A stretch of DNA of 64,000 nt, from NCBI GenBank assembly GCA_031459655.1, contig JAVKID010000001.1:893-64892 (forward strand), given 5' to 3'. Origin of the DNA: Candidatus Fervidifonticultor octavus. Lineage in GTDB: Bacteria; Sysuimicrobiota; Sysuimicrobiia; Sysuimicrobiales; Humicultoraceae. Both the position numbers and the translations under genes were made by a program. Under the pieces are notes generated by a model. It had not been told where the DNA came from. It saw only the letters and a program-made list of their open reading frames with translations, and did no database searches. Positions 1 to 48,244 of this stretch are shown here, piece after piece. The stretch's first letter is position 1, and every line of letters begins with the position of its first letter.

Positions 1-215
1 TTCGCTGGATCCACCAGGTCCGGAGTGGAGAAGTCGTAATCGGTCTGAAGGCTCGAGGGGGAGAAGGAGATCTCCTCGACCTCGCAATCAAGGCGGCCGA
101 GCCGCTGTGCGACCCATCGCTGTGTAGATGTCTCGCCGTCCGCCGAGGCCTGCAGGATCTCCTGCAGCGCGGCGATGCAGGCCGCACGGTCGGGGACGAC
201 AGGTCGGGGCGCCAC
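1..215 (-). CDS. Hypothetical protein, N-terminal 71 codons only; gene runs off the window start. GTG start at 215, preceded by an in-frame TAA
   Basis: Minus-strand frame reads VAPRPVVPDRAACIAALQEILQASADGETSTQRWVAQRLGRLDCEVEEISFSPSSLQTDYDFSTPDLVDPA with a protein-like composition and an in-frame stop just upstream of the GTG. Family not recognised; the N-terminus is vaguely M20/amidase-like. Confidence 0.4.
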   Translation of the reverse strand, partial: MAPRPVVPDRAACIAALQEILQASADGETSTQRWVAQRLGRLDCEVEEISFSPSSLQTDYDFSTPDLVDPA

Positions 216-248
216 CGGATGGTCTTCAGGTATGCGCGTGATATGTTA

Positions 249-277
249 ATGATATCTCAGATGGCGCCCGTTGTCAA
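249..277 (-). promoter_or_regulatory. Sigma70-like promoter on the minus strand: TTGACA (272-277) -17 nt- TATCAT (249-254), for the partial gene at 1-215
   Basis: An AT-rich island in a 70% GC background. The -35 is an exact consensus match, the spacer is 17 nt, the -10 matches 5/6, and it sits about 35 nt upstream of the GTG start. Confidence 0.4.
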
Positions 278-292
278 CCCCCGCCCCCGGCG

Positions 293-1606
293 TCAGGGCG
301 GCAGGCACGCCGCCTCCATCTCCCTCCGGACGCGCAGCGTCGGATCTGCGGGGTCTATCGCGACATCCTCGTATCCGACGATCCGACCCGCCCGCACGTC
401 CCGCACCAGCCGCACGCCGTGGGCCAGCCCGATCGGCAGCATCCCCGCCCGCACCGATTCCTCCGCCCGCCGCAGCACACCGTAGACCGTGTAGCCCCCC
501 TCCCCGTCGAGTCGCTCCCCGGCGCGCAGGTCGCGCTTGGCGGCGGCCACCACGTCGCCCTGGCACGCGACCGGAGCGCCGGTCGGCTCGCCGAGCAACC
601 CCACGCGCAGCACGCTGACGGACAGTTCCAGCCCGACCAGGTGATACGGCCGGTACAGCGCCGCGAAGCGGCCGGACTCATCGGTGACCAGTCCGTACTC
701 GGCGAAGCAGCGCCTCACATAGTCGCCGGGTGCCTCGAACGTCACATAGACCCCCCACCGCAGATCGCCCTCCACCTGGCGGCCGTCACGGTAGAGACTG
801 GAGACGACCTCCACCGTGCCGGCATGCGCCAGCGTCCCTCCCGCCTGACGCGGTCGGCACACCTGGGGCAGGTCGCGGATCCCCGCTGGGGGGAACCCCA
901 GGCCCTCCGGCTGCGGGACCAGGCCCGTGGCGTTGGCGACCGCGGCCATCTCGATGGCGGACTTCGTCCCGTCCAGGAACGAGTTGAACATCCGGGGGTT
1001 CATCCCGCCGCTGGCGGCCTGCTCGGCTGTGAGGCCGTAGTGCTCCCAGACGGTGTCGGGCGTGGAGGCGTGGTAGGCCGGCAGGTACTTCGTGCCCTTG
1101 CCGGCGGCGGTGACCTCGAACCCCGCGGCCCGTGCCCAGGCCACCAACTCACAGATCAGTGCCGGCTGGTCACCATAGGCCAGGCTGTAGACCACCCCGC
1201 GCTCCCGCGCTCGCCGGGCCAGCAGCGGACCCGCCAGCGCATCGGCCTCGACGTTGACCATCACGAGGTGGACGCCGGCTTCGATGGCGGTCAGGGCATG
1301 ACGGATGCCGGCGGCGGGCACACCGGTGGATTCGACGAGGACATCGAGGCCCGGAGCATGGATGAGGGCCTGCGCGTCGTCCGTGATGAAAGTTGTGCCG
1401 ATGGCCTCCTCCGGCCACCCGGCCCGCAGGAGCGCGCTCCGGGCACGGTCAGGCACGAGGTCGGCCACGCCGAGCACCTGCAGGCCGCGCAGCCGCCGCG
1501 CCTGGGCGAGGAACATGGTGGCGAACTTCCCAGCGCCGACGACGCCGACCCGGAGGGGGCGTCCGGATGCGTCGCGCTGGGTGAGGCGGTCGAGAAGGGC
1601 ATCCAT
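293..1606 (-). CDS. NAD(P)-binding oxidoreductase with a C-terminal SAF domain (COG4091-type predicted homoserine-dehydrogenase-like)
   Basis: Rossmann motif VGVVGAGKFATMF near the N-terminus. Start taken at MDALLDRL (ATG 1606), not at the longer R/P-rich N-terminal extension. C-terminal SAF-like segment (GERLDGEGGYTVYGVL...). Confidence 0.6.
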   Translation of the reverse strand: MDALLDRLTQRDASGRPLRVGVVGAGKFATMFLAQARRLRGLQVLGVADLVPDRARSALLRAGWPEEAIGTTFITDDAQALIHAPGLDVLVESTGVPAAGIRHALTAIEAGVHLVMVNVEADALAGPLLARRARERGVVYSLAYGDQPALICELVAWARAAGFEVTAAGKGTKYLPAYHASTPDTVWEHYGLTAEQAASGGMNPRMFNSFLDGTKSAIEMAAVANATGLVPQPEGLGFPPAGIRDLPQVCRPRQAGGTLAHAGTVEVVSSLYRDGRQVEGDLRWGVYVTFEAPGDYVRRCFAEYGLVTDESGRFAALYRPYHLVGLELSVSVLRVGLLGEPTGAPVACQGDVVAAAKRDLRAGERLDGEGGYTVYGVLRRAEESVRAGMLPIGLAHGVRLVRDVRAGRIVGYEDVAIDPADPTLRVRREMEAACLPP

Positions 1607-1781
1607 CGGTCCCGACTCCCGGTTTTGGGTGGACAGGTTCTCCCTGGCGCGGCCCTGCTCCCCCCAGCGGACCGCGGTCTTGATCGGCGACACGCCACCC
1701 GCCACAATAGACGCAACGCGTGGATCGACCCTGGGGTCACGCAGAGTGAAGAGGAGCCTGCGGAGAGGACGGGGCACCTGA

Positions 1782-2738
1782 GTGAACTGGAAGTACCCCG
1801 CATTCCTCTGGCTACTGCCGGCGCTGGCTGGGCTGAGCGCCCTCTCCCTGGCCGTCCTGTGGCGCAGGCAGGCGCGCGGCGCCGTGCGCTACCCCCTCTG
1901 GATCGTGGCCGAGGCCGCCTCGCACGCCGGTCCGATCCGCCGGCACCTGCCGGCCGTCTTCCTCATCCTCGCCCTGGCCGCCGCCATCCTCGGCGCCGCC
2001 GGGCCGGTGGTCCCGTGGTGGACGCCGACCGGGTGGCCGGTGGTGCTTATCATCGATGTCAGCCGCAGCATGGAAGAGCCGGACATCCCGCCCAGCCGCA
2101 TCGAGGCCACCAAGGCGGCCGCCCTGGACTTCGTGGCGCGGCTCCCGCGCGCGACGAGGGCGGCGCTGGTCACGTTCGGGAACTATGCGACCGTCGTGGT
2201 GCCCCTCACAGCCGATCGGGCGAGGATGCAGGAGGCGATCCGGGGCATCACCACGCAACTGCGCACGCAACTTGGCAACGGTCTGGTGGAAGGGGTCCGC
2301 GCGGTGGCGGGCGAGGGCGGCTCCTCCCCAGGGCCGAATGCGGCGCCGGGAAGCGGAACTCGGGCGATCGCCATCCTCCTGTCGGACGGCCGCGCGAGCG
2401 ACGGGATTCCACCCCTGGAGGCTGCGGAGGAAGCGAGGCGCCGGGGCGTCCGGGTCTACACGGTCGGCGTCGGGACGCTGCAGGACCCGTCGAACTTCCG
2501 CAGCGGCTACTGGGGGGTGCTGGACGAGCCGACGCTGCGGGCGATCGCGGCCGAGACGGGAGGGCAGTACTTCCACGCCGCCGAGGCCGGGCGGCTGCGG
2601 GAGATTTACCGCGACCTGGCCGGGATGGTGGGATGGGAGCGGCGACCGACCGAGGTCTCGGCCGTCGCGGGCGGGATGGCGATGGCCCTCCTGGTGGTCT
2701 CGGTCGTACTGCGATTCCTGCTCTTCCCGATGGGGTAG
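1782..2738 (+). CDS. VWA domain-containing membrane protein (BatA-like)
   Basis: Two N-terminal TM helices, then a von Willebrand A fold with a MIDAS-like DVSRSM motif (LIIDVSRSMEE), and a C-terminal TM. GTG start. Confidence 0.7.
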   Translation: MNWKYPAFLWLLPALAGLSALSLAVLWRRQARGAVRYPLWIVAEAASHAGPIRRHLPAVFLILALAAAILGAAGPVVPWWTPTGWPVVLIIDVSRSMEEPDIPPSRIEATKAAALDFVARLPRATRAALVTFGNYATVVVPLTADRARMQEAIRGITTQLRTQLGNGLVEGVRAVAGEGGSSPGPNAAPGSGTRAIAILLSDGRASDGIPPLEAAEEARRRGVRVYTVGVGTLQDPSNFRSGYWGVLDEPTLRAIAAETGGQYFHAAEAGRLREIYRDLAGMVGWERRPTEVSAVAGGMAMALLVVSVVLRFLLFPMG

Positions 2739-2743
2739 ACGGC

Positions 2744-2920
2744 ATGCTATGTTCGACGCGGCCGAGGCTTTGCTGCACGAAGGAGGCCTTCGGCAAGCGG
2801 ATCGAAGGTAACGACGGTGTCTACGCCCGCGTGACGGCGGAAGACTTGGAGACCATGCTCCGGCAGGCCAGGGAGGTCCTGCTGGCAGCCCGACCTCACC
2901 TTCGGTCCGGCCGGCGATGA
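2744..2920 (+). CDS. Small hypothetical ORF (58 codons) whose stop overlaps the XPB start (ATGA)
   Basis: The frame reads ...KEAFGKRIEGNDGVYARVTAEDLETMLRQAREVLLAARPHLRSGRR. The second half is protein-like, and it ends TGA overlapping ATG 2917 of the helicase. The N-terminus and the true start are uncertain. Confidence 0.25.
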   Translation: MLCSTRPRLCCTKEAFGKRIEGNDGVYARVTAEDLETMLRQAREVLLAARPHLRSGRR

Positions 2921-4392
2921 CCCCCTCCGCCCGCCTCCGCTTCGACCGCGGCTCCCTCCGCCTGGACGCCCCCCGGCAGACGCGCGTCCCGCCCTCTCTC
3001 ATCTGGGACAGCCGCGTGGGCGCCTGGCGGACGGAAGCGCTCCACTACCAGCAGGTCCGCGAAGAGGCCGCGCGGTACCACCTTGCCCTGACCGACGAGG
3101 CCGAGCGCTACTTCGACTGTCCGCCGCTCTCCGTGGCCCTCCCCCCGCTGCGCCCGGACCAGCAGGCAGCCGTCCTGGCCTGGGAACGGGCGGGCTGCCG
3201 GGGCGTGATCGTCAAGCCTACCGGCACCGGGAAGACCGAGATCGCCCTGGCCATCATCGCCCGCCACCGGGTCCCGGCGATCGTCGTCGTGCCCCTGCGG
3301 GATCTGATGTACCAGTGGCAGCGGCGCATCCGGCAGGGGTTGGGGGCAGACGCCGGCATCCTCGGCGACGGCCGGCGCGAGGTCTGGCCGATCACCGTGA
3401 CCACCTACGACAGCGCCTATATCCACATGAAGGAGATCGGCAACCGGTTCCGCCTGATCGTCTACGACGAGGCGCACCACCTGCCGGCGCCCACGCTGCG
3501 GGAGAGCGCGCTGGACTGCCTGGCGCCCATGCGCCTCGGGCTCACCGCCACGCCCTGGCGGGCCGACGGGGCCGACCGGTTGCTGGAGGATCTCATCGGG
3601 CCGGTCGTCTACCAGGAGCAGATCTCCCAGGCACGGGGCAAGACGCTGGCCACCTACAGTCTCATCCGCGTGCCGGTCCATCTCGGCGAGGAGGAGCAGG
3701 CCGAGTTCGACGCCCTGTCGCGGCGCATCCGCGCCTACGTGGCCCGCCGGCGCCGCGCAGGCCGTCCGGCAGAGGCGGACGGCCCGAGGCCGATGGGGGC
3801 GGGAAGGGACCGGAGGCTCACTGCGGGCTTCGACTGGACGCGGGATCTGGCCATGCATGCCCGCACCGATCCTGAGGCCCGGGCGATCCTGCGGGCCTAC
3901 CGGCGGAAGCTTGCCATCACCCACCGCTCCGCAGAGAAACTCCGCGTGGTCGAGGACATCCTGCGTCTGCATCCGGACGATCAGGTGGTGATCTTCACCG
4001 CCTCGAACCGGATGGCGCTCGACGTCTCGGCGCGCTTTCTCATCCCGGCTTTGACCTCGCATTCCGACAAGCAGGAGCGCACCCGCGTCCTCGACCTCTT
4101 CGCCCTGGGGAGGTTTCGGGCCCTGGTGGCCTGCGAGGTGCTCAACGAGGGGTGGGACGCGCCCGCCGTCAAGGTCGGGGTGGTGCTCGGGGGAGAGAAG
4201 GGGACCAGGGAGGCGATCCAGCGCATCGGCCGTCTGCTCCGGAAGAGCGGGGACCGCACCGCGCGCCTCTACGAGGTGGTGGTCCAGGAGTCCCCCGATC
4301 TGGCCCGGGCGCGGCGACGGGGCCGCACCGATGCTTACCAGACCGCAACGCGTCTATCACTGGATCAGGCCCGGCAGGTCGATCTCTTCTGA
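2917..4392 (+). CDS. XPB/Ssl2(ERCC3)-like superfamily-2 DNA helicase
   Basis: Walker A VKPTGTGKTEIA, DEAH box (IVYDEAHHL), helicase C motifs, and an XPB-type damage-recognition-like N-terminus. Followed by a Bax1/DUF790 gene, as in archaeal XPB-Bax1 pairs. Confidence 0.8.
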   Translation: MTPSARLRFDRGSLRLDAPRQTRVPPSLIWDSRVGAWRTEALHYQQVREEAARYHLALTDEAERYFDCPPLSVALPPLRPDQQAAVLAWERAGCRGVIVKPTGTGKTEIALAIIARHRVPAIVVVPLRDLMYQWQRRIRQGLGADAGILGDGRREVWPITVTTYDSAYIHMKEIGNRFRLIVYDEAHHLPAPTLRESALDCLAPMRLGLTATPWRADGADRLLEDLIGPVVYQEQISQARGKTLATYSLIRVPVHLGEEEQAEFDALSRRIRAYVARRRRAGRPAEADGPRPMGAGRDRRLTAGFDWTRDLAMHARTDPEARAILRAYRRKLAITHRSAEKLRVVEDILRLHPDDQVVIFTASNRMALDVSARFLIPALTSHSDKQERTRVLDLFALGRFRALVACEVLNEGWDAPAVKVGVVLGGEKGTREAIQRIGRLLRKSGDRTARLYEVVVQESPDLARARRRGRTDAYQTATRLSLDQARQVDLF

Positions 4393-5580
4393 CCGGCTGG
4401 ACGACGCCTGCCTGCCGCACCTGGCCCGGGCGGTCGCCGTCTACCGGCGGATGGCCGGCCGAACCCGCGGCGAGGTGCGCAATGCGGCGCGGATGGCCCT
4501 GGGCCGGTTGCGGCCCGACCGGGTCGAGGCGATCGTCAAACTCCTCGACGACGTCGCGACCTACGAATGGCCCCGCGGCGGCCGGCAGGCGGAACGGCGG
4601 CTGCGGGTGTTCGAGGCGGCCGCGCGGGCGCATCCCCTGGTGGATCCCGGGCGCGCCCAGGCGCTCCTCCGCGAGGCATTGGGCGCCGTTTGGGCCGGGG
4701 ACCAGGGGCGCGGGGCGCCGGGGGCGCCGCCGCGTCTCGACGAGGCCGTGCCCGCCCTCTATGCGGACTACCCGGAGTTCCACCGCCTCCGCGCCTTTCC
4801 CGCGGACTACTCCGCAGACGCCCTGCGGGCCGACTACGACCTGGCCCAGGCCCAGGCGCTGCTCTACGATGCGATCCGCGTCACCGTGGAGGCGACCGGC
4901 GACTTCAAGCACATCGTGCGCTATGCGCGGCTGGCCCGCCTGCTGCACCGCATCCAGCGGCTGCGCGGAGGAGGGTACCGGTTGGTCTTTGACGGGCCGA
5001 ACTCGGTGCTGCGGCAACCCACGCCTACGGGGTGGACTTCGCCAGGTTCCTGGCGGCGCTCGTCCAGGCCCGGGGCTGGACGTTGACCGCGGAGGTCGTG
5101 CTGAGGCGGGGATGGCGGCCGGCGACGTATGTCCTCTCGGACGCCGACGGACTCCGCTCGCGGGTGCCCGCGCCGGCGCTCTTCGACTCCAGGCTGGAGG
5201 AGACGTTCGCGCGCTTGTTCGGGCCGCACCGCGACGGCTGGCGGCTGTCGCGCGAGGCTGTGATCCTCGAGGCCGGCGAGGGGCTGCTGGTCCCCGACTT
5301 CGTCTTCACGCACGACGACGGCACCGAAGTGGCGTTGGAGATTGTCGGCTATTGGACGCCGGACTATCTGGCGACGAAGTTCGCCAAGCTGGGCGGGGTC
5401 CGGACTCCCCACCTGATGGTGGCGGTGCGCAAGTCGCTCGCCCTGCGCGCCGGGAGCCTGCCTGCGACGGTCCTGCCCTTTGCCAGCGGGATCCTGCTGC
5501 GGGACCTGATGCCCAGGCTGGAGGCCTTCCGGTCCGGGGCGCCTACCAGACCATCGGCGAGCCGGCCGTCGGCTCGATGA
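4331..5580 (+). pseudogene. Bax1-like nuclease (DUF790) partner of XPB, split by a frameshift near 4990-5035 into 4331-5086 and 5032-5580
   Basis: The N-terminal frame (MLTRPQRVYHW...GGGYRLVFDGP) and the C-terminal frame (YGVDFARFLAAL...LVPDFVFTHDDGTEVALEIVGYW, a PD-(D/E)XK-like nuclease core) sit in different frames and together make a Bax1-length protein (~415 aa). The start overlaps the XPB 3' end. Confidence 0.6.
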
Positions 5581-6955
5581 CCCGGACGTCCGGCACCAGG
5601 GCCTTCCACATCGCCGCCTGCTCCGTGTGGATCGGCACCAGGATCTCCGGCCGCAGCCGCCGGACCATCCGAACCAGATCCGCCTGCCCCGCGTGACCCG
5701 ACGCGTGGCTGACGACCCGCCGCTGCACGCCCAGTCGGTCCAGCCAGTTGTCCAACCGCCACCGGTCGAAGACCTGCTCTTCGTCGTGCGGCTCGCTGGC
5801 CGAGGAGACATACAGCGCATCGGCGCCGACGTGGAGGTCGATCAGGTTCAGGATGTCCCAGAACGACAGGGCCAGGATCAACCGGGACGCCATCGGCCGC
5901 AGGTCCTCCGGCGACCGCGCGGTCGGCCAGCGGAGCACCCGACGCTCCCAGGTGGCGTAGTCCTTCTCACTGTAGGTGCCACTCTTCTTGCGTTCCTTGA
6001 GGATCAGCATGGGCTCGGCGCGGGGGTCGGGCACGAGCGGGTGGAGGCCGCGCAGGCGGTCGAGCAGGAAGGCGTCCTGCGGGAGGACGACGAGAACGCG
6101 TCCGGTCTCCTGCGCAATGCGCAGGAACGTCGCGAGCCGGTAGAGGTCGCGGGGCGCGAAGTCGGCGATCACCGGCCCGCGTGTCTCGCGGACGGCCGCC
6201 AGGCACTCGGCGAAGACGTCCTGCTCGGTGCGCCGCACGGTCTCGTCCAGGCGCGTGCCCTCGGCCAGCAACATCCAGACGCCCTCGGCCGCCGCCGCCT
6301 CGAGCATGGCCTCGCTGAGGTGTGCGTCCGGGCCGTGGAAGCGCAGGTCGCCGGTGTAGAGGATGGTGCCGCGCGAGGTGCGCAGCAGGAACGCGACGCA
6401 GCCGAGCATCGAGTGGTCGACCGGCAGCGCACGGCAGGAGAGCCCGCCGACGTTGAACTCGCCTTCGACCTCGAGGAAGGGCCGCGGGGTCGCCACGCCC
6501 CTGTCGTCGAAGGCGGGCCGGCGCTTGAAGTTGACGATCTCGGTCTCGAAGTCGCGGGCGCGGCTCTCCTGCATCGCCTGCAGGGTGCGGAGGCACAGCG
6601 GCGAGCAGACCGTCGGGACCCGCTCGTCCAGGAAGCCGATGTGCCCGGCGTGGTCGAGGTGCGCGTGCGTGAGCAGGACCGCCTGCGGGAGCGGTTCGGT
6701 GTGGACCGGCAGCCCGTGGTCGCCGATCGCCAGCAGGTCGCGGCGGTAGAGGCCCGGGACCGCAGGCAAGACGCCGGTGACGAGCAGGTCGGTCAGGCCG
6801 GCCGCCGTGCGCGGCTTGAGGTACTCCTCGAAGTAGCGCTTGCGGCGCGCGTAGGAGATCCCGAAGTCCAGGAAGACGCAGGCCTCGCCGTCCTCCAGGA
6901 GGATCTTGTTGCCGCCGATCTCGCCGGCGCCGCCGAACACCGTGAGGCGGAGCAT
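5543..6955 (-). CDS. MBL-fold metallo-hydrolase of the beta-CASP type (RNase J-like / RNA-metabolising)
   Basis: HxHxDH motif (THAHLDHAGHIGFL), a further histidine motif (VSHASGH) and a beta-CASP-like C-terminal region. Start at MLRLTVFGGAGEIGGN (ATG 6955); the upstream R-rich extension was rejected. Confidence 0.7.
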   Translation of the reverse strand: MLRLTVFGGAGEIGGNKILLEDGEACVFLDFGISYARRKRYFEEYLKPRTAAGLTDLLVTGVLPAVPGLYRRDLLAIGDHGLPVHTEPLPQAVLLTHAHLDHAGHIGFLDERVPTVCSPLCLRTLQAMQESRARDFETEIVNFKRRPAFDDRGVATPRPFLEVEGEFNVGGLSCRALPVDHSMLGCVAFLLRTSRGTILYTGDLRFHGPDAHLSEAMLEAAAAEGVWMLLAEGTRLDETVRRTEQDVFAECLAAVRETRGPVIADFAPRDLYRLATFLRIAQETGRVLVVLPQDAFLLDRLRGLHPLVPDPRAEPMLILKERKKSGTYSEKDYATWERRVLRWPTARSPEDLRPMASRLILALSFWDILNLIDLHVGADALYVSSASEPHDEEQVFDRWRLDNWLDRLGVQRRVVSHASGHAGQADLVRMVRRLRPEILVPIHTEQAAMWKALVPDVRVIEPTAGSPMVW

Positions 6956-7016
6956 GACACTACTGTAGGGGGAAACCCGGGCGGCTGGTAGCCATGGGGT
7001 GCGCCCGACGGGCCGG

Positions 7017-8366
7017 CTACCTGAGGTAGTCCAGGTGCGGCGCCAGGCGGCGCCGGAACTCCTCCGCCATGCGCCGCGCGACCTCGGCCGAGGGCACCAG
7101 CGGGTGTCGGGCCAGCGCCGCGACCGCGCCGGCCCATGACCCCTCCAGGGCTGCCTCGACGGTGGCGCGTTCGTAGGCCTTGACCTGCAGCACCAGGTCA
7201 CGTACCTGCGCCGGCAGCCGGCCCATCCGCCGCGGCCGGACTCCACCGGTATCGACGCGGCAGGGGACTTCCACCACGTCGTCCGCGGCGAGATCGTCGA
7301 TGGCGCGGCCGTTCGTCGTGTTCACGATCAGTTCATGGCGTGAGGGGGTCACCATCGCCTCGATGACGCCCAGCGCCGCGCGGGCGTAGCCGCCCTCGAC
7401 CCGCCCGCCCATCATGGCGAGATCGCGGGCCTGCCCGGTCTCGGTCGCCATGTAGGACGACCGCCGCGCGAACACCGCGGCCTCGTAGTGCGGGAGGGGA
7501 TCCTCACCGCGGGCCGCCGCCTGCAGCACCGCTTCCCGCAGCTGCGAGGCCACATCGGCCACGGCCTGGCCGCGCGTCTTGGGGGCGGCGCGCAGGCGCC
7601 TGACGACCTCCTGGTGGTGGTAGTAGTAGTGCAGGTACTCGTTGGGCAACAGGCCGAGGCGCCTGATCTCGGCAGGCTCGAAGAGGGGCCGTCCGTAGAC
7701 GGTGCGGATGGCGTCGTCGCTGGCGAGGATGTCGGGCAGGCGGTCGATCCCGTCGACCCAGACGGCGCGGACCCACCCCAGGTGGTCGAGGCCCAGGTAG
7801 TCGAGGCGCAGCGCGTCTTCGGGGACGCCCAGGCGGTCGGCGATCCTGCGGCCCAGCGCAGGCGGCGCGTCACAGATGCCGATGACGCGGGCCTCGCCCG
7901 ACGCGGTCAGGGCCTGGGTGACCAGGCCCGCTGGGTTGGTGAAGTTGATCAGCCAGGCCGCGCTCGCCCGCCGGCGCAGCCGCGCGGCGATGCCGGTGAG
8001 TACGGGAATCGTCCGCAGCGCCATGGCCCATCCGCCGGGGCCGGTGGTCTCCTGCCCGACGACCCCGAACGCCAGCGGGACCTGCTCGTCCACCGTGCGG
8101 CCCGCCAGGCCGCCGACGCGGATGCTGGTGACCACGAACGACGGCCCCTCCAGCGCCTCATCGAGGGACGTGGTCGTGCGCACCGCAAACGGGCGCCCGC
8201 TGCGGGCCAGCAGCGCGTCGGCCAGCGCGCCGACGACCGCCAGGGCGTCGGCGTCGACGTCGTGGAGGATCACCTGTTCGACCGGCACCCGTGCGCGCCG
8301 CTCGATCAATCCGCCGACCAGCAGCGGGGTCCGCATCCCGCCGCCGCCGATGACCGAGAGGATCAT
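7017..8366 (-). CDS. Glycoside hydrolase family 4 (6-phospho-beta/alpha-glucosidase-like)
   Basis: N-terminal NAD-binding MILSVIGGGGMRTP, GH4 motifs (GQETTGPGG, NFTNPAG, ICDAP). Its ATG overlaps the stop of the upstream PfkB gene (ATGA). Confidence 0.8.
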   Translation of the reverse strand: MILSVIGGGGMRTPLLVGGLIERRARVPVEQVILHDVDADALAVVGALADALLARSGRPFAVRTTTSLDEALEGPSFVVTSIRVGGLAGRTVDEQVPLAFGVVGQETTGPGGWAMALRTIPVLTGIAARLRRRASAAWLINFTNPAGLVTQALTASGEARVIGICDAPPALGRRIADRLGVPEDALRLDYLGLDHLGWVRAVWVDGIDRLPDILASDDAIRTVYGRPLFEPAEIRRLGLLPNEYLHYYYHHQEVVRRLRAAPKTRGQAVADVASQLREAVLQAAARGEDPLPHYEAAVFARRSSYMATETGQARDLAMMGGRVEGGYARAALGVIEAMVTPSRHELIVNTTNGRAIDDLAADDVVEVPCRVDTGGVRPRRMGRLPAQVRDLVLQVKAYERATVEAALEGSWAGAVAALARHPLVPSAEVARRMAEEFRRRLAPHLDYLR

Positions 8367-9340
8367 GCCGGTGCCCGCTCGGCGTCCCGGAGCGCCGCAT
8401 GCAGTCGGCGCAGGGTCGGAAATGCCGTCGTGCCGCCTGGGGCCTGCGTGGACAGCGCCCCGCAGATGTTCCCGGCGCGCAGGCAGCGCGGCAGCGGCTC
8501 GCCGCGCAGCCAGGCCCACAGGAATCCGGCGTTGAAGGCGTCCCCGGCGCCGGTGGTCTCGACCGGCGCGACTTCCGGGGGGCGCACCCGAAGGGGGCGG
8601 CCCTCTTCCAGGCCGACGGCGCCCTCGGCGCCCAATTTGATGACCGGGACCGGCACCAGGTCGCCCAGGATCCTCACCGCCTGCTCGGGCGTCGCCCGCC
8701 CCGTGAACCACCGGGCATCCGGCCACGACGGCAGGAAGATCGTCACACTCGTGACGACCTCCCGGAACTGCGGGTCGCTGTAGACCGCCGGGTTCCACCC
8801 CATGTCGAGGGACGTCGTGACGCGCATGACGCGCAGCCGCCGCATTAGGTCCACGGCGGCGTCGAAGGGCGGTCGCACCCCGGCGAAGTGCACGTGGCGG
8901 ACCCGGGGGTCGGTGGCCCACTTCCAGTCGCGGAGCAGCCTGGCGTTCTCGGCCGCGCACCCGGCGAAGCTCACGAACCCGCGGTCGGCGGTCGTCGAGA
9001 ACGCCACCGAGACGGCGGTCCCCAGCCGGGGATGGGGCCTCACCAGGGAGACGTCCACCCGCTCCCGGCGCAGCCCGTCCAGCTGGAACTGCCCCAGGAT
9101 GTCGCGCCCCACATAGGCCCGCACCGCCACCTCCAGGCCGAGGCGGCGCAGCCCGACCGCCGTGATGTAGGCGCCCCCGCCCAGCGTGATGGCGAACCGG
9201 TCCTTCCGGACCTCCTCGCCGAGCGCCGGTACGCCGTCCAGGTTGAAGAAGATGAGGTCGCAGTAGATGCTGCCGACCACGACAACCCGGGGGCCGGGCG
9301 GGCGGCGACGACGGGCCTGGCGGGCGAGCCTGCCGGGCAT
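8363..9340 (-). CDS. PfkB-family carbohydrate kinase (ribokinase-like)
   Basis: VVVVGSIYCDLIF N-terminal motif and a C-terminal TGAGDAFNAGF anion-hole/ATP motif. Start at MPGRLARQ (ATG 9340); the ORF upstream of that is an extension in a different context. Confidence 0.75.
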   Translation of the reverse strand: MPGRLARQARRRRPPGPRVVVVGSIYCDLIFFNLDGVPALGEEVRKDRFAITLGGGAYITAVGLRRLGLEVAVRAYVGRDILGQFQLDGLRRERVDVSLVRPHPRLGTAVSVAFSTTADRGFVSFAGCAAENARLLRDWKWATDPRVRHVHFAGVRPPFDAAVDLMRRLRVMRVTTSLDMGWNPAVYSDPQFREVVTSVTIFLPSWPDARWFTGRATPEQAVRILGDLVPVPVIKLGAEGAVGLEEGRPLRVRPPEVAPVETTGAGDAFNAGFLWAWLRGEPLPRCLRAGNICGALSTQAPGGTTAFPTLRRLHAALRDAERAPA

Positions 9341-9351
9341 GATCCTCCTCC

Positions 9352-9531
9352 TCAGAGCGCAAGACCCAGCAACCGGGCGGCGTTGCCCGCGATGATCATC
9401 CGCAGGGCCTCCTCGCCGGCGCCGATCTCGCAGCACGCCTGGTACTGCACCTCGAGGTAGCGCCGGGCGAATCCCCGCAGGAACCACGAAGAATCCGTCC
9501 CGAAGATGATCCGACGCGGGGCGATCCCCAT
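9352..9531 (-). pseudogene. Remnant: C-terminal 59 codons of an amidohydrolase-2 (TIM-barrel metal-dependent hydrolase) gene
   Basis: MGIAPRRIIFGTDSSWFLRGFARRYLEVQYQACCEIGAGEEALRMIIAGNAARLLGLAL matches the characteristic C-terminus of PF04909-type amidohydrolases (...iiFGTDsp ... NAarllgl). There is an in-frame stop 33 nt upstream and no N-terminal part anywhere nearby. Confidence 0.45.
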
Positions 9532-9542
9532 AGATTCCCGGC

Positions 9543-9571
9543 TTCGACTTCGCCACCTCCTGCCCTATACT
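9543..9571 (+). promoter_or_regulatory. Candidate promoter TTCGAC -17- TATACT upstream of the FdhF/YdeP gene
   Basis: Hexamers are spaced 17 nt apart, about 25 nt before ATG 9597, with a GGGGGG Shine-Dalgarno in between. Confidence 0.3.
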
Positions 9572-9596
9572 CGTAGGTAGCCGGCGGGGGGCTGTC

Positions 9597-11864
9597 ATGG
9601 ACCGTCACTTCAGGATTGCGGGCTGGGATCCGTCGCTGTGGGCCAGCCGCAGGCCGCTGGGCATCGGCGAGGGCCGGCCCAACAACTATGCGGAAATCTG
9701 GAGGGCCATCTGGGAGAACCGGGACCAGATCCCCTTCGCCTGGCGGATCCTCACCCGGGGGGTCTGTGACGGGTGCGCGCTGGGGACCGCCGGGATGCGG
9801 GACTGGACTCTGGACGGCAACCACCTGTGCAACATCCGGCTGCGCCTGCTGCGCCTGAACACGATGCCCGCGCTGGACGCCCGGCTGCTGGCGGATGTCT
9901 CGGCCCAGGGCGGCAGGCGCAACGAGGACCTGCGCGCGCTGGGCCGGCTGCCCTACCCCCTGGTGCGCCGCCGGGGAGAGGCCGGCTTCCGCCGCATCAC
10001 GTGGGACGACGCCCTCGACCTCATCGCGGGCCGCATCCGCGACGCCCTGGCGCGGCCTGAGGGGTCCCGGCGCATCGGCTTCTACCTGACCAGCCGCGGC
10101 ATGGCCAACGAAGCCTACTACGCGGCGCAGAAGGCCGTCCGCGCCATCGGGACCAACTCCATCGACAACGCCGCGCGCGTCTGCCACGCGCCGAGCACGT
10201 ACGCGTTGAAACAGGCCCTCGGCGTGGCGGCCAGCACGTGTTCCTATGTGGACTGGATCGGCTCCGACCTGGTGGTTTTCATCGGGTCCAACGTTGCCGG
10301 CAACCAGCCGGTCGCCGTGAAGTACCTGTACTACGCCAAGAAGGCCGGCACGAAGGTCGTTACCATCAACAGCTACCGCGAGCCGGGGATGGAGCGCTTC
10401 TGGGTCCCCTCGATCCCCGAGAGCGCGCTGTTCGGCACGAAGATCACCGACCGGTTCTTCCTCGTCAATGTCGGCGGGGACATCGCGTTCCTCAACGGAA
10501 CGCTGAAGGCAATGATCGAACGAGGGTGGGTGGACGACGCGTTCATCGAGGCGCACACGGCTGGCTTCGAGGAGCTGCGGGCCGCGCTGGCGGCCCAACC
10601 GTGGGACGCGCTGGAGCGCCACAGCGGCGTCGGCCGCGCCGAGATGCTGGAGTTCGCGAGGATGGTCGGCGAGGCCCGGACCGCCGTGTTCGTCTGGTCG
10701 ATGGGCATCACGCAGCACGCGTTCGGGGAGAACAACGTCCGCGCCATCGTGAACCTGGCGCTGGCGCGCGGCTTCATAGGGCGCGCTCGGTGCGGTCTGA
10801 TGCCGATCCGCGGACACTCCGGCGTGCAGGGCGGGGCCGAGATGGGCGCCTACGCCACCGCCTTTCCCGGCGGGCTTTCGATCACCCCCGAGCACGCGCG
10901 GCGGTTCGCCGACCTGTGGGGCTTTCCGGTCCCGGACCGCCCCGGCCTGACGGCGCCCGAGATGATGGACGCGGCCGCCGACGGCCGGCTGGACGTGCTC
11001 TTCTCGGCGGGCGGGAACTTCCTGGAGGTGCTGCCCGATGCGGCCTTCGTCCGGGAGGCGCTGTGTCGCATCCCACTGCGGGTCCACATGGATATCGTCC
11101 TGACCCGGCAGATGCTGCTGGAACCCGCAGACCTGGTCGTGCTGCTCCCGGCGGCCACGCGGTACGAGACGCCCGGCGGCGTGACCCAGACCAGCACCGA
11201 GCGGCGGATCATCTATAGCCCCGAGATCCCGGGACGGCGCATCGGCGAAGCCCGGCCCGAGTGGGAGGTCTTCATGGATCTGGCGCGGCGGGTCCGGCCG
11301 CAGTGGGCCGACCGCCTGCGGTTCGACGGCACCGCGGCGATTCGCCAGGAGATCGCCCGCGCGGTGCCGTTCTACGACGGCATCCAGTACCTCAAGCGGG
11401 CCGGGGATCAGGTCCAGTACGGTGGGCCGCACCTGTGCGCGGGGTGGATGTTCCCGACCCCGGACGGCCGGGCGCACTTCACCGCCGTGCCGCTCCCGGA
11501 CGCCGGGGTGCCCGAAGGGATGTTTCTGGTGGCCACGCGCCGGGGCAAGCAGTTCAACAGCATGGTGCACGAGACGCGTGACGCGCTGACCGGCGCGGCG
11601 CGCGAGGCGGTGCTCATCAGCCGCCAGGACGCCGAACGTCTGGGGCTGCGCGATGGCGACCCGGTGGTGCTGCGCAGCGCCACCGGCGAGTTCCGCGGCC
11701 GGGCCTGCGTGGCGCCGGTCAAGCCCGGGACGCTGGAGGTGCACTGGCCGGAGGGCAATGTGCTCATCGACCGCCGGCGGCGGTCACCGGAGGCGGGGAT
11801 TCCGGACTACAACGCCGTGGTGCGGCTGGAGGTCCCGGCCGCCGCCGGTCCCGCGGGAGGCTGA
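9597..11864 (+). CDS. FdhF/YdeP-family molybdopterin oxidoreductase (formate-dehydrogenase-like)
   Basis: N-terminal Cys cluster (CDGCALGTAG...C), molybdopterin oxidoreductase domains, and a C-terminal molybdopterin dinucleotide-binding region. Followed directly by fdhD. Confidence 0.8.
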   Translation: MDRHFRIAGWDPSLWASRRPLGIGEGRPNNYAEIWRAIWENRDQIPFAWRILTRGVCDGCALGTAGMRDWTLDGNHLCNIRLRLLRLNTMPALDARLLADVSAQGGRRNEDLRALGRLPYPLVRRRGEAGFRRITWDDALDLIAGRIRDALARPEGSRRIGFYLTSRGMANEAYYAAQKAVRAIGTNSIDNAARVCHAPSTYALKQALGVAASTCSYVDWIGSDLVVFIGSNVAGNQPVAVKYLYYAKKAGTKVVTINSYREPGMERFWVPSIPESALFGTKITDRFFLVNVGGDIAFLNGTLKAMIERGWVDDAFIEAHTAGFEELRAALAAQPWDALERHSGVGRAEMLEFARMVGEARTAVFVWSMGITQHAFGENNVRAIVNLALARGFIGRARCGLMPIRGHSGVQGGAEMGAYATAFPGGLSITPEHARRFADLWGFPVPDRPGLTAPEMMDAAADGRLDVLFSAGGNFLEVLPDAAFVREALCRIPLRVHMDIVLTRQMLLEPADLVVLLPAATRYETPGGVTQTSTERRIIYSPEIPGRRIGEARPEWEVFMDLARRVRPQWADRLRFDGTAAIRQEIARAVPFYDGIQYLKRAGDQVQYGGPHLCAGWMFPTPDGRAHFTAVPLPDAGVPEGMFLVATRRGKQFNSMVHETRDALTGAAREAVLISRQDAERLGLRDGDPVVLRSATGEFRGRACVAPVKPGTLEVHWPEGNVLIDRRRRSPEAGIPDYNAVVRLEVPAAAGPAGG

Positions 11865-11865
11865 G

Positions 11866-12765
11866 ATGCGCCCCCGTCCGGGCAGCAAGACGCGCGCGCA
11901 GGTCCTGGTGGTAAGTGACGGGCGTCTCGCGCCCCACCCCGACCAGGTGGCCACCGAGGAACCCATGGAGATCCGCGTCGCGGCGGGGCCGGGCGGGGAC
12001 GCCGGCCGACGGACGGTCGCGGTCACGATGCGGACCCCGGGCGCCGACTTCGAACTGGCCGCCGGATTCCTCTTCAGCGAAGGCCTCCTCCGGTCGCGAG
12101 ACGAGATCCGGCGGATCAGCTACTGTACCGATCCCGCCGTCGGCCCGGACCAGCGGTACAACGTGGTGACGGTCGAACTGGCCGGTACAGCCCTTCCGGA
12201 CCTGGCGCCGCTGGAACGACACTTCTTCACCTCCAGCGCCTGCGGGGTGTGCGGCAAGGCCGGCATCGAGGCGCTCCGCGTGCGCGGCTGCAGGCCGGTG
12301 GCCTCCGGTCCGGCGGTCGAGGCCCGCGTGCTGGCAGGGTTGCCCGAGACACTCCGGGCGGCCCAGAGGGGCTTCCGGGCGACCGGCGGCCTGCACGCCG
12401 CCGCCCTCTTCGATGCCAAGGGCACCCTAGTGATGGCGAAGGAAGACGTGGGCCGGCACAACGCGATGGACAAACTCGTGGGCTGGGCCCTCCTGGAGGG
12501 CCGGGTGCCGCTGGACGATCATCTCGTCCTGGTCAGCGGGCGGGCCAGTTTCGAACTGGTGCAGAAGAGCCTCGCCGCGGGCATTCCCGTCTTCTGCGCG
12601 GTCTCGGCACCCACCAGCCTGGCGGTGGGCCTGGCACGGGACTTCGGGATGACGCTCGTGGGCTTCCTCCGGGGAAGCCGGTTCAACGTCTACGCAGGGG
12701 TCGAGCGGGTCGTGGCCGGCGTTCCGCGCACGGTGGCGCCCGCGCGCCGGGCGGGCTCTGGCTGA
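11866..12765 (+). CDS. fdhD: Formate dehydrogenase accessory sulfurtransferase FdhD
   Basis: Conserved SACGVCG cysteine motif and GGLHAAALF. Start at MRPRPGSK (ATG 11866), 1 nt after the YdeP stop. Confidence 0.8.
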   Translation: MRPRPGSKTRAQVLVVSDGRLAPHPDQVATEEPMEIRVAAGPGGDAGRRTVAVTMRTPGADFELAAGFLFSEGLLRSRDEIRRISYCTDPAVGPDQRYNVVTVELAGTALPDLAPLERHFFTSSACGVCGKAGIEALRVRGCRPVASGPAVEARVLAGLPETLRAAQRGFRATGGLHAAALFDAKGTLVMAKEDVGRHNAMDKLVGWALLEGRVPLDDHLVLVSGRASFELVQKSLAAGIPVFCAVSAPTSLAVGLARDFGMTLVGFLRGSRFNVYAGVERVVAGVPRTVAPARRAGSG

Positions 12766-12771
12766 GACCGG

Positions 12772-13689
12772 CTACGCCGCGGGATCGGGGAGCAGGGCCG
12801 CCGTCGGGCTGGTGAGCTGATCGGCGCCGGCTTCCAGCAGCGCGAGCAGCACGCCCCTGACGTCCGGGGCGTCCGCGTCCAGCGTCCACACGTCCACGAC
12901 GGCGCCTGGCAGGTGCTCGTGGATGAACCGGATGGGGTTGAACCCGTCGCCCAGAGCCTGGAGCACGAACTCCCTGCGCAGGTAGAACTCGCTCGCCCCG
13001 CCGACCTGGGTCAGCAGCACCTCCATGCGGTCTTCCAGGTAGGCCGCCGGGGGGAGCAGCCTCCGGTAGCCCAGCGGGTGGTCGTCGAGGTAGCCGTAGG
13101 CGTTGACGCGCAGCGGCAGGCGGATCGGTCCGTCGTCGGGGGCGTCGAGGTAGAGGGCGAAGTCAACGCCCACCGCCAGGGTGGCGTCCAGCCGCCGCAG
13201 GGCCCGCAGGTTCCAGTCGGCCTCGCAGCCGACCACCACCCGCACGGGCGTGGAGCGTCGAAGCGGGGCCAGCGCATCCAGCAGGCGCGCGGCCGCCTGG
13301 GGGGCCACCGGCGCGTGCTCCTTGAGGTCCACCTGAACCTTTAACGGGCGCCGCACCTCCCGCAGGATGTCGACCGCCTCGGCCAGCGTCGCCGGCGCCT
13401 CGTCCGTCCCCCGCAGGCGCAACGCCCGGAACTGGTCGGCCGTGATCTGCCGCAGCGGGCCGACCCCGTTCGTCTCCCGCTCGAGGGTGGCGTCGTGGAG
13501 GAGGACGTAGTGGTCGTCGCCGGTGAGGCCCACGTCGAACTCGATGACCTCCGCCCCATCGGCGAGGACTTGGCGCAGGGCCGAGAGGGAATTGGGCGGA
13601 CGGCTGTGCATACCGCCCAGCAGCCTGTGGTACTTCAGGAGGACCTTCCGGCCGCGGTGGACCAAGGAGGTCCGGGGACGCTCGTTCAC
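12772..13689 (-). CDS. Glycerophosphodiester phosphodiesterase family protein (GDPD); start uncertain, a GTG at 13689 is proposed
   Basis: GDPD core: HRG-like ...HRLLGGMHSRPPNSL, EFDV, VLLHD, ETNG. The listed 736-aa ORF is an artefact running antisense to the SBP gene. Confidence 0.55.
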   Translation of the reverse strand: MNERPRTSLVHRGRKVLLKYHRLLGGMHSRPPNSLSALRQVLADGAEVIEFDVGLTGDDHYVLLHDATLERETNGVGPLRQITADQFRALRLRGTDEAPATLAEAVDILREVRRPLKVQVDLKEHAPVAPQAAARLLDALAPLRRSTPVRVVVGCEADWNLRALRRLDATLAVGVDFALYLDAPDDGPIRLPLRVNAYGYLDDHPLGYRRLLPPAAYLEDRMEVLLTQVGGASEFYLRREFVLQALGDGFNPIRFIHEHLPGAVVDVWTLDADAPDVRGVLLALLEAGADQLTSPTAALLPDPAA

Positions 13690-13860
13690 CTCGTGCCCCT
13701 GCCCTTTCCGACGGCGGACCCCACGCCCTGTACTTACGTTCCGGATCGTCCCCATCCTCCGACGGACGGCCCGCCGGGCGCGGCGGGCCGGACCGCGTTC
13801 TCTGCTAGAATGGGGGCAGGTGGATCCGAGACGCTGGCCGACTGCAGAGGGGTGAGAGGC

Positions 13861-15231
13861 ATGGACAGATCCGGCAGGTCCTGGAAGGCGGCTGGTGCGG
13901 CCGCGCTCGCCGCGTCCCTGATCGTGGGCGCCGGTCCCCTGGTCACAGGAGGGCCCGCCAAGCGTGTGGTGGTCATCCGCGCCGCTGTCCGGGCGGATGC
14001 CAGCGGTCCCGACCGGGCCATCAACCTCAAGCGGGCTGTGGACCGCCTGAACCCCAAACTCACCGACGTGGCCATCCAACTCCAGATCGAGGAACCTCCC
14101 ACGCCGACCTGGGCGGACGAGACGGCGCGGCTGATGCGCGCGTTTGCCGCCGGCGAGGGCCCGGACATCTACACGATCGCCCATCCATTCCTCGGTCAGT
14201 TCGCCAAGGCCGGACACGCGCTGATCCTGGATACCCTGATCAAGCAGTACCCCGACACCTACAACGACTTCTATCCTTCGCTGTGGAACTCGGTGCGCTT
14301 CCGCGGCAGCATTTACGCCATCCCACAGGACACCGAGGCGCGCATGGTCTACTTCCGCCTGGACCGGCTCAGGCAGTTCGGCTGGTCGGACGCGCAGATC
14401 AGGGCGCTGCCCGAGCGCGTCAGGCGCGGCGAGTTCACCCTGCGGGACATGGCGGAGCTGGCGCAGCAGGTCAAGGACCGTGGCATCGTCGAGTGGGGGT
14501 TCATGCACCGCCCGGTGCGCGGGCCCGACTACTACCAGTTGATCATGGCGTTCGGCGGCCGCCTGCAGGACCCTCGATCCGGGAAACTCGTGCTCTCCAA
14601 GTCGGCGACACTGGAGTTCCTGAAGTTCCTCCATGACCTGGTCTACCGGTACCGGGTGACGCCCGCCAGCATGACCAACATGACGTGGCGCTCGATCCTC
14701 GGGGGATTTGCGGCCGAGGGCAAGCTGCTCTTCTGGTTGGGCGGCATCTGGCAGAGCGGCGAGTTCATCAAGGACTACGGCGTGCCGGCCGGTGAGTTCT
14801 TCACCCGGATCGACTGGATGCTCATCCCCCCCGGGACCAAGGGCGGCCGGCCGGTCACGCTGTCCCATCCCATCATCTATGTCGTGAGCGCCCGCAGCCG
14901 GGAGAAGGAACTGGCCTTCCGCATCGTTACCGAGGCGTCGGCGGCCGACCTCAACGCGATCCACAACGTCAACAGCGTGCACCTGGCCATCCGGAAGGCC
15001 GTGGTGGACATCCCCGAGTACAAGAACAACCCGTGGCTGAGCCGGGCGACGGCGCTATTGGAGTACACGACCTTCCTCCCGCTGCACGAGGACTTCGGCA
15101 AGTATGACCAGATCATCTACGAGGCGATCCAGGCAGTCGAGTTCAACCGACTGTCCCCGGAGGCCGCATTGCAGTTCGTCGAGACCCAGCTGCGGTCGCA
15201 GTTGGGCAACCAGCTGATCGTGCAGGACTGA
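13861..15231 (+). CDS. ABC transporter substrate-binding protein (family 1; UgpB/sugar-glycerophosphodiester type)
   Basis: Signal peptide MDRSGRSWKAAGAAALAASLIVGAGP, then an SBP_bac_1-like fold. Start at ATG 13861, preceded by a GAGGGG Shine-Dalgarno; TAGAAT -10-like at about 13806. Confidence 0.75.
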   Translation: MDRSGRSWKAAGAAALAASLIVGAGPLVTGGPAKRVVVIRAAVRADASGPDRAINLKRAVDRLNPKLTDVAIQLQIEEPPTPTWADETARLMRAFAAGEGPDIYTIAHPFLGQFAKAGHALILDTLIKQYPDTYNDFYPSLWNSVRFRGSIYAIPQDTEARMVYFRLDRLRQFGWSDAQIRALPERVRRGEFTLRDMAELAQQVKDRGIVEWGFMHRPVRGPDYYQLIMAFGGRLQDPRSGKLVLSKSATLEFLKFLHDLVYRYRVTPASMTNMTWRSILGGFAAEGKLLFWLGGIWQSGEFIKDYGVPAGEFFTRIDWMLIPPGTKGGRPVTLSHPIIYVVSARSREKELAFRIVTEASAADLNAIHNVNSVHLAIRKAVVDIPEYKNNPWLSRATALLEYTTFLPLHEDFGKYDQIIYEAIQAVEFNRLSPEAALQFVETQLRSQLGNQLIVQD

Positions 15232-48143: not shown

Positions 48144-48244
48144 CCCGCAGCCCGGCCGCCCCGCTTGGGGAGCCTCCAAGGGGGGAACCCGTCCCGCAGG
48201 CACGAACTCTGGGGTACCGGCCCTGTGGCGGGAGGTGGGCGACG

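Follow-up and report, generated by a model that had tools for sequence, protein, structure and literature searches.

We analyzed a 64,000-nucleotide stretch of DNA (hereafter the window) from Candidatus Fervidifonticultor octavus, an uncultured hot-spring bacterium of the candidate phylum Sysuimicrobiota (formerly CSP1-3), in which positions 2917-5580 encode an XPB-type helicase followed by a Bax1/DUF790 nuclease. This segment is probably a two-gene helicase-nuclease cassette that stands on its own and has a frameshift in the nuclease gene, both of its neighbors being bystanders. Judged by its sequence matches, the cassette appears to be the bacterial counterpart of the archaeal XPB-Bax1 complex, and the locus is a new member of a pairing that has been known bioinformatically since 2005. 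An earlier note on the same DNA had listed four open reading frames (ORFs), namely a VWA membrane protein, a 58-codon ORF, XPB and Bax1, and had proposed that they may form one unit, conceivably with a role in anti-phage defense. All four ORFs are present, but the proper annotation is XPB, a frameshifted Bax1 and a HEPN remnant, not a four-gene system.

The XPB-Bax1 pair and its overlap

The G+C content of the DNA is ~72%, and because of this long spurious ORFs are abundant. The coding frames were therefore fixed by a third-position GC (GC3) plot and by profile searches, and each coding frame is backed by the GC3 frame plot. The helicase gene (2917-4392, plus strand) encodes a superfamily 2 (SF2) protein of 491 amino acids (aa) that matches Pfam XPB_DRD (E = 5.6e-11), ResIII (E = 1e-23) and Helicase_C (E = 3e-13). 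The N-terminal DRD (residues 7-62) scores 42.6 bits against a cut-off of 26; the ResIII and Helicase_C scores also exceed their cut-offs, and Walker A (GTGKT, 3223-3237, plus), DEAH (3466-3477, plus) and motif VI (QRIGR, 4219-4233, plus) are spread over the two RecA-like domains. XPB residues 5-469 align with Archaeoglobus XPB (2fwr_A, E = 3.9e-76), while Sulfurisphaera XPB (6p4f_A) aligns in two blocks (E = 2e-79); overall, the matches to archaeal XPB structures lie at E = 1e-76 to 1e-79. The thumb-like (ThM) region is spanned by the sequence alignment, and the window protein has an extra insert of ~20 aa in it. The genome in the collection that comes closest to the window is Candidatus Fervidifonticultor sextus, whose sister locus (L003) is 92% identical to the window. 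In comparison with L003, the ratio of nonsynonymous to synonymous substitution rates (dN/dS) of XPB is 0.16.

The nuclease gene is present as proposed, but not as one ORF. Its first frame (4331-5086) matches Pfam DUF790 with E = 1.3e-27 (97 bits, profile positions 12-215), and its second frame (5032-5580) with E = 5.9e-35 (121 bits, profile positions 221-384); the two jointly cover positions 12-384 of the 387 in the profile, with a cut-off of 28.8 bits. The DUF790/Bax1 profile check that the earlier note had suggested thus came out positive for both frames. NCBIfam Bax1 models match the C-terminal part (E = 1.9e-17 and 1.7e-14), and the frames match the Bax1 chains of PDB 6p4w, 6p4f, 6p4o and 6p66. 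By homology, the N-terminal part (4331-5016, plus), whose frame continues to a stop at 5086, would comprise the N-terminal domain that binds XPB and the beginning of the Cas2-like domain, and the C-terminal part (5017-5580, plus) is a predicted PD-(D/E)xK/VRR-Nuc-like nuclease domain. The active-site acidic residues of Archaeoglobus fulgidus Bax1 (AfBax1) are E275, D305 and E318 (PMC7293015). They correspond to the window codons for E (5197-5199), D (5296-5298) and E (5338-5340), all on the plus strand and checked codon by codon, and these residues are invariant in 14 sequences. An invariant K follows at 5377-5379 (plus), and the motifs FDS..EE, PDF and EIVG.WT agree in the profile alignment to 6p4w_B, the aspartate of PDF being D323 of the window Bax1.

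The two frames are separated by the deletion of one base, a C, between 5016 and 5017 (plus). In the DNA alignment, L003 reads CGGCACACC where the window reads CGGCA-ACC, and the extra base is also present in L004, L038 and L010. Across this junction, 13 aligned relatives read GPNSVLRHTHAYGVDFARFL without interruption, and the best 120 of 478 homologs are 387-440 aa long, consistent with intact genes. The NCBI annotation calls no gene in the Bax1 stretch of the window. All three catalytic acidic residues lie downstream of the frameshift. The deletion aside, none of the residues invariant across the family alignment has been lost from Bax1, and its N-terminal and C-terminal parts show dN/dS of 0.50 and 0.29, respectively, against L003. 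On these ratios the break should be recent or artefactual. It would therefore be either a recent pseudogene or an assembly error, with the module freshly inactivated in the one case and mis-assembled in the other. A scan of JGI metagenome contigs for other assemblies of the population, by exact patterns spanning the junction and either including or lacking the extra base, returned nothing.

The two genes share DNA. The Bax1 ATG at 4331 lies inside the 3' end of XPB, so that exactly 62 nt (4331-4392, plus) are read in two different frames, encoding the C-terminal tail of XPB and residues 1-20 of Bax1. An overlap of precisely 62 nt recurs in all 35 scorable loci of the close clade. At third codon positions, the entropy falls from 1.16 bits in flanks that code for XPB or Bax1 alone to 0.39-0.45 bits within the overlap, whichever frame is taken. 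This drop in both frames indicates that the XPB tail (DAYQ.A.RLSL.QA.QLDLF) and the Bax1 N-terminus (MLT...RVYHW.....SISSDRL) are both constrained. The tail, of ~20 aa, is specific to the clade, since alignments with archaeal XPB end at residue 468-469. The overlap probably couples the translation of XPB and Bax1.

The pairing extends well beyond the window. A scan of one genome per species yielded 80 loci encoding Bax1 relatives. Among related loci with 1.5 kb or more of DNA on the upstream side, the gene immediately before Bax1 is XPB in 68 of 69 cases. The claims that a helicase gene is followed by a Bax1 gene starting inside its 3' end, and that this is the archaeal type of pairing in a bacterium, are both borne out by the overlap, by the Pfam and PDB matches and by these loci.

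Distribution and predicted role of the pair

The mechanism that we propose is drawn from archaeal structures and biochemistry (PMC7293015, PMC7672443; reviewed in PMC13024598). XPB would grip the junction between duplex and single strand, translocate with ATP and open the duplex at a bubble or fork. Bax1 would bind XPB via its N-terminal domain and cut the single-strand/double-strand junction with a PD-(D/E)xK-type active site made of E, D and E. The result would be an accessory DNA-processing activity, and in our analysis an accessory role in repair or recombination is favored over one in defense.

Bax1 copies of the close clade are 56-76% identical to that of the window and carry the labels Armatimonadota (probably CSP1-3), Rokubacteria/Methylomirabilota, Bacillota, Gemmatimonadota and Binatia. 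A neighbor-joining tree places the CSP1-3 copies together in a single group that is nested among those of Rokubacteria. This pattern may suggest some horizontal spread of XPB-Bax1, with the caveat that the taxon labels of metagenome-assembled genomes are unreliable. Two Rokubacteria genomes have two XPB-Bax1 loci each (L015 and L019; L024 and L032), and the double loci could be paralogs, strain mixtures in a bin or a mobile unit. An upstream pair of small minus-strand genes, of 151 and 75 aa, is shared by L015, L019 and L043.

The neighborhood was surveyed by taking the two nearest genes on each side of the pair at ~40 close-clade loci, which gave 130 products. Flanking genes are mostly metabolic or transport genes, and the commonest families are ABC permeases (7), PIN (6) and creatininase (5). 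An all-against-all BLAST revealed no conserved third gene in the close clade, the largest neighbor family having 5 genes in 3 loci. PADLOC models matched one type I methyltransferase, one MzaA and three PDC-S03 among the 130 neighbors.

A more distant group of loci is found in Acidobacteria, mostly Pyrinomonadaceae, with Bax1 ~30% identical to the window copy. Here a recurrent cluster consists of SSB, a 352-aa phrog_10048-like protein, XPB followed by Bax1, and a CoiA-like nuclease, sometimes with a DnaQ-like exonuclease or an HNH endonuclease. Each neighbor family occurs in 7-12 of the 37 loci (L046-L082; e.g., L049 4698-10009 and L052 3035-10147). These neighbors match phage families (SSB phrog_44, phrog_10048, exonuclease phrog_192 and HNH phrog_5200), and the cluster is flanked by ordinary chromosomal genes, e.g., an amidase and a TPR regulator. 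Bax1 itself has no match among the PHROG families. Such a context points to DNA metabolism and is compatible with repair or recombination as well as with a mobile-element origin. The gene that precedes XPB at L052 encodes a LAGLIDADG homing-endonuclease domain.

With regard to expression, a TTGCAT-N17-TAGACAT-like motif ends a few bases before the XPB start in seven Rokubacteria/Methylomirabilota loci (L022, L025, L029, L030, L035, L037 and L040). This promoter-like motif suggests a leaderless XPB-Bax1 transcript, which would be expressed independently in these relatives. Neither the window nor L003 has the motif, its position being taken up by HEPN sequence in both.

Several observations weigh against reading the pair as an autonomous bacterial counterpart of the archaeal complex. 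The mechanism rests entirely on archaeal homologs with ~30% identity or less. XPB reaches 148.7 bits on the NCBIfam archaeal XPB equivalog NF045503, which has a cut-off of 610, and by the NCBI rule it would be classed as a homolog and not an equivalog; Bax1 reaches 63 bits on its NCBIfam equivalog, far under the cut-off of 500. At the RED position (within 3556-3567, plus) the window reads R-A-D: TATPWRADG aligns with TATFEREDG of Archaeoglobus and TATPERDDG of Sulfurisphaera XPB, so that an A stands between the retained R and D. No LexA box of six types (seven regular-expression patterns) was found upstream of XPB at 35 loci, and there is thus no sign of damage-inducible (SOS) control. Toxin-antitoxin families are frequent among the 130 neighbors (PIN 6, MazE 3, Uma2 3) and are as compatible with a region that is accessory or mobile as with a repair locus. 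A literature search returned only classification papers and archaeal work, with no bacterial Bax1 experiment and no defense role. Finally, read-through from the VWA gene into XPB may occur in this genome, so that the two could be co-transcribed.

The alternative that survives best holds that XPB-Bax1 is accessory and horizontally spread, and attacks foreign DNA or serves the replication or recombination of mobile elements instead of host excision repair. It could account for the similarity among copies labeled as different phyla with CSP1-3 nested among Rokubacteria, for the variable flanks that often hold toxin-antitoxin genes, for the two genomes with two copies, and for the phage-family matches of the Acidobacteria neighbors. 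The XPB core also matches PbeA of a phosphorothioation-linked defense system (E = 6e-49), a possible selfish character was noted in the 2005 analysis (PMC1189080), and the apparent decay in the window genome fits a dispensable function. However, Bax1 belongs to no PADLOC or PHROG family, the defense-model matches among the neighbors are the few listed above, most neighbors are metabolic or transport genes, and the Acidobacteria cluster sits among ordinary chromosomal genes; the unreliable taxon labels also weaken the argument for horizontal transfer. We therefore regard this alternative as unlikely. A more specific version, in which XPB-Bax1 is a compact, horizontally spread cassette whose overlap enforces coupled expression and which acts on foreign or mobile DNA and not in host excision repair, is in our view quite unlikely. 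If it were true, the toxin-antitoxin-rich flanks, the cross-phylum similarity, the phage-like neighbors in Acidobacteria and the decay would be signatures of an accessory immune or selfish module that is missing from defense catalogs.

Neighboring genes and the remaining alternatives

The 58-codon ORF (2744-2920, plus) ends in the ATGA at 2917-2920, where its stop overlaps the XPB start. This part of the earlier description holds, but the ORF is not a coupled component. It has no Pfam, NCBIfam or PADLOC match of its own, and its origin is apparent from its DNA correspondence with L003. There, ~1 kb between the VWA stop and the XPB start holds two genes, a MazE/AbrB-nucleotidyltransferase (MNT) protein at 5641-6207 and an intact 128-aa HEPN protein at 6204-6590 (Pfam HEPN, E = 3.5e-15). 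The chain in L003 runs MNT, HEPN, XPB, Bax1, with ATGA overlaps joining MNT to HEPN and HEPN to XPB. Window 2744-2781 corresponds to L003 6313-6350 (34 of 38 bases matched), and window 2782-2925 to L003 6452-6595 (126 of 144). Relative to L003, segments of 747 nt and 101 nt are gone from the window, and because 101 is not a multiple of three the two surviving HEPN pieces are mutually out of frame. The deletions removed HEPN residues 1-36 and 50-83; within the latter, RYRKHGGVH in L003 is taken as the putative Rx4-6H catalytic motif. In the last 45 codons of the relic, 12 residues differ from L003, and dN/dS is 1.74. An exact-pattern scan across the HEPN deletion junction in JGI metagenome contigs found nothing.

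The small ORF is conserved only in L003, as the 3' end of the intact HEPN gene, and HEPN and MNT stand next to XPB in no other locus. Judging from these alignments, the 58-codon ORF is best described as a decaying relic of the HEPN toxin gene of an MNT-HEPN toxin-antitoxin cassette. A conserved coupling peptide was considered for this ORF and rejected, the ORF being a HEPN relic that evolves neutrally. The cassette would have been inserted flush against the XPB start codon in an ancestor shared with Ca. Fervidifonticultor sextus, and would later have been largely deleted in the window genome. Lying directly against that start codon, the cassette may have taken the place of the native promoter of XPB. 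Expression could then have fallen when the toxin-antitoxin promoter was lost, ahead of the Bax1 lesion.

Further upstream, 1782-2738 (plus) encodes a 318-aa BatA-like VWA/MIDAS membrane protein, as had been described. It matches Pfam VWA (E = 4.8e-20) and VWA_2 (E = 6.5e-18), has the MIDAS motif DVSRS (DxSxS; residues 92-96, at 2055-2069, plus), and shows hydrophobic segments near residues 6-27, 52-80 and 290-318, i.e., at both ends as in BatA. Its matches to NCBIfam PRK13685 and BatA are sub-threshold, and the BatA N-terminal match of its L003 ortholog is weak (21.9 bits, under the cut-off of 25.9). No MoxR AAA+ ATPase or DUF58 gene was found among the genes called from ~7 kb upstream to 11 kb downstream of the VWA gene (XPB ±10 kb flanks). 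A tblastn search of the 80 loci with the window VWA protein found it only in L003 (upstream, 88% identity) and L038 (downstream of Bax1, 72%). At L038, which belongs to another CSP1-3-like genome, it adjoins a molybdopterin oxidoreductase and FdhD, both of whose genes lie a few kb downstream in the window. We read the VWA proximity as local synteny reshuffled around the pair. L038/L083 9459-13478 corresponds to window 1782-2738 plus 9597-11864, between which XPB-Bax1 and three sugar/RNase genes intervene in the window.

These data bear on the proposal that VWA, small ORF, XPB and Bax1 form a four-gene unit, perhaps anti-phage, with VWA sensing or anchoring. The four genes are co-oriented with short gaps, ATGA joins the small ORF to XPB, no terminator-like site separates the four genes, and neither a promoter-like nor a terminator-like site lies between VWA and XPB; the VWA ortholog also adjoins the pair in both L003 and L038. 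A promoter and terminator scan of 1550-5800 found none, which is uninformative in a genome of 72% GC. Against the proposal, Pfam VWA accounts for only 2 of the 130 flanking genes at the ~40 close loci, the gene is upstream of the pair in L003 but downstream of it in L038, its molybdopterin oxidoreductase and FdhD neighbors at L038 point to local synteny, and the small ORF is what remains of a degraded HEPN gene, with elevated dN/dS. When the five window proteins were compared with PADLOC models, only the XPB helicase core matched (as PbeA); VWA and Bax1 matched none, and no defense system was recognized. A four-gene unit is thus very improbable, and the suggested co-occurrence of VWA with XPB-Bax1 did not hold up in the neighborhood comparison. 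The VWA protein is, as far as its sequence and distribution indicate, a bystander that shares the neighborhood only in the closest relatives. A defense role gains nothing from it and is conceivable for the two-gene pair alone.

On its other side, the cassette meets a convergent beta-CASP/metallo-beta-lactamase (RNase J-like) gene at 5543-6955 (minus). The 3' end of Bax1 and this gene overlap tail to tail by 38 nt (5543-5580), likewise in L003, and no terminator-like site was found at the junction. A DRL-type oxidoreductase gene occupies 293-1777 (minus), with 1606 as its start in the NCBI annotation. Window 1-14392 is identical to contig JAVKIM010000007.1 (GCA_031459465.1), with no mismatch over the part compared, which is the fetched locus. 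Window position 1 is position 48226 of this 63,776-nt contig, the end of which would be expected at ~15551, and the window continues to 64,000 with no N. The window may have been stitched from more than one contig of the assembly.

Programmed ribosomal frameshifting that reads the two Bax1 frames as one protein, which their overlap at 5032-5086 with high GC3 and conserved residues in both might suggest, is extremely improbable and was rejected, because the site (CGG CAA CCC ACG) is neither a homopolymer nor a slippery X XXY YYZ heptamer and the break is a one-base deletion relative to the 13 relatives that are intact across the junction.

Comparison with known systems

Among defense systems, the closest match is PbeA of DndCDEA-PbeABCD (PDLC02703-02707, TIGR04095), with which the window protein shares an XPB-like SF2 helicase core (E = 6e-49 and 8.8e-39). 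Only this core matches, at ~370-680 of the PbeA model; the window XPB has a DRD, and it scores far higher against archaeal XPB structures. No PbeB, PbeC, PbeD or dnd genes are nearby, the neighbors being metabolic. The remnant upstream of XPB resembles HEPN-MNT type II/VII toxin-antitoxin modules in that, in L003, a HEPN gene comes after one for a MazE/AbrB-nucleotidyltransferase, with ATGA overlaps. In contrast to such modules, the window keeps two fragments only (38 nt and the last 45 codons), with the central HEPN segment deleted.

XPB of Mycobacterium tuberculosis, for which ATPase and helicase activity has been demonstrated (PMC3353954), is likewise a bacterial XPB-family helicase. According to the same paper, a complex of XPB with a nuclease had not been identified in bacteria, and the window XPB gene differs in overlapping the gene of a Bax1 partner.

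The archaeal XPB-Bax1 systems of Archaeoglobus fulgidus and Sulfurisphaera tokodaii (PDB 6p66, 6p4f, 6p4w, 6p4o) share with the window the gene order of helicase then nuclease. The window XPB, with its DRD, both helicase domains and a putative thumb region, aligns with its archaeal counterparts end to end, and the window Bax1 aligns over the N-terminal, Cas2-like and nuclease domains with E, D and E kept. The window pair differs in its bacterial host, low identity, scores far under the NCBIfam equivalog cut-offs, and R-A-D motif. Its XPB adds the clade-specific C-terminal tail of ~20 aa in the 62-nt overlap, its Bax1 match ends before the C-terminal domain of AfBax1 (chain residues 30-380 matched, the domain being 400-468), and its nuclease gene is frameshifted. 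With a broken nuclease gene, and with bystanders in place of the additional components that had been proposed, the window is a poor exemplar of the system.

The association of DUF790/COG3372 with the COG1061 (SSL2) helicase in prokaryotes was described by Kosinski et al. 2005 (PMC1189080) and Steczkiewicz et al. 2012 (PMC3424549), whose surveys place bacterial members in Cyanobacteria, Deinococci and Rubrobacter. The pairing here is the same, but the surveys are without the clade of CSP1-3 and Rokubacteria, the fixed 62-nt overlap and the SSB/CoiA context of Acidobacteria. With two genes, a fixed overlap and many intact orthologs in a well-delimited bacterial clade, the pair offers a usable entry point to the bacterial side of this association.

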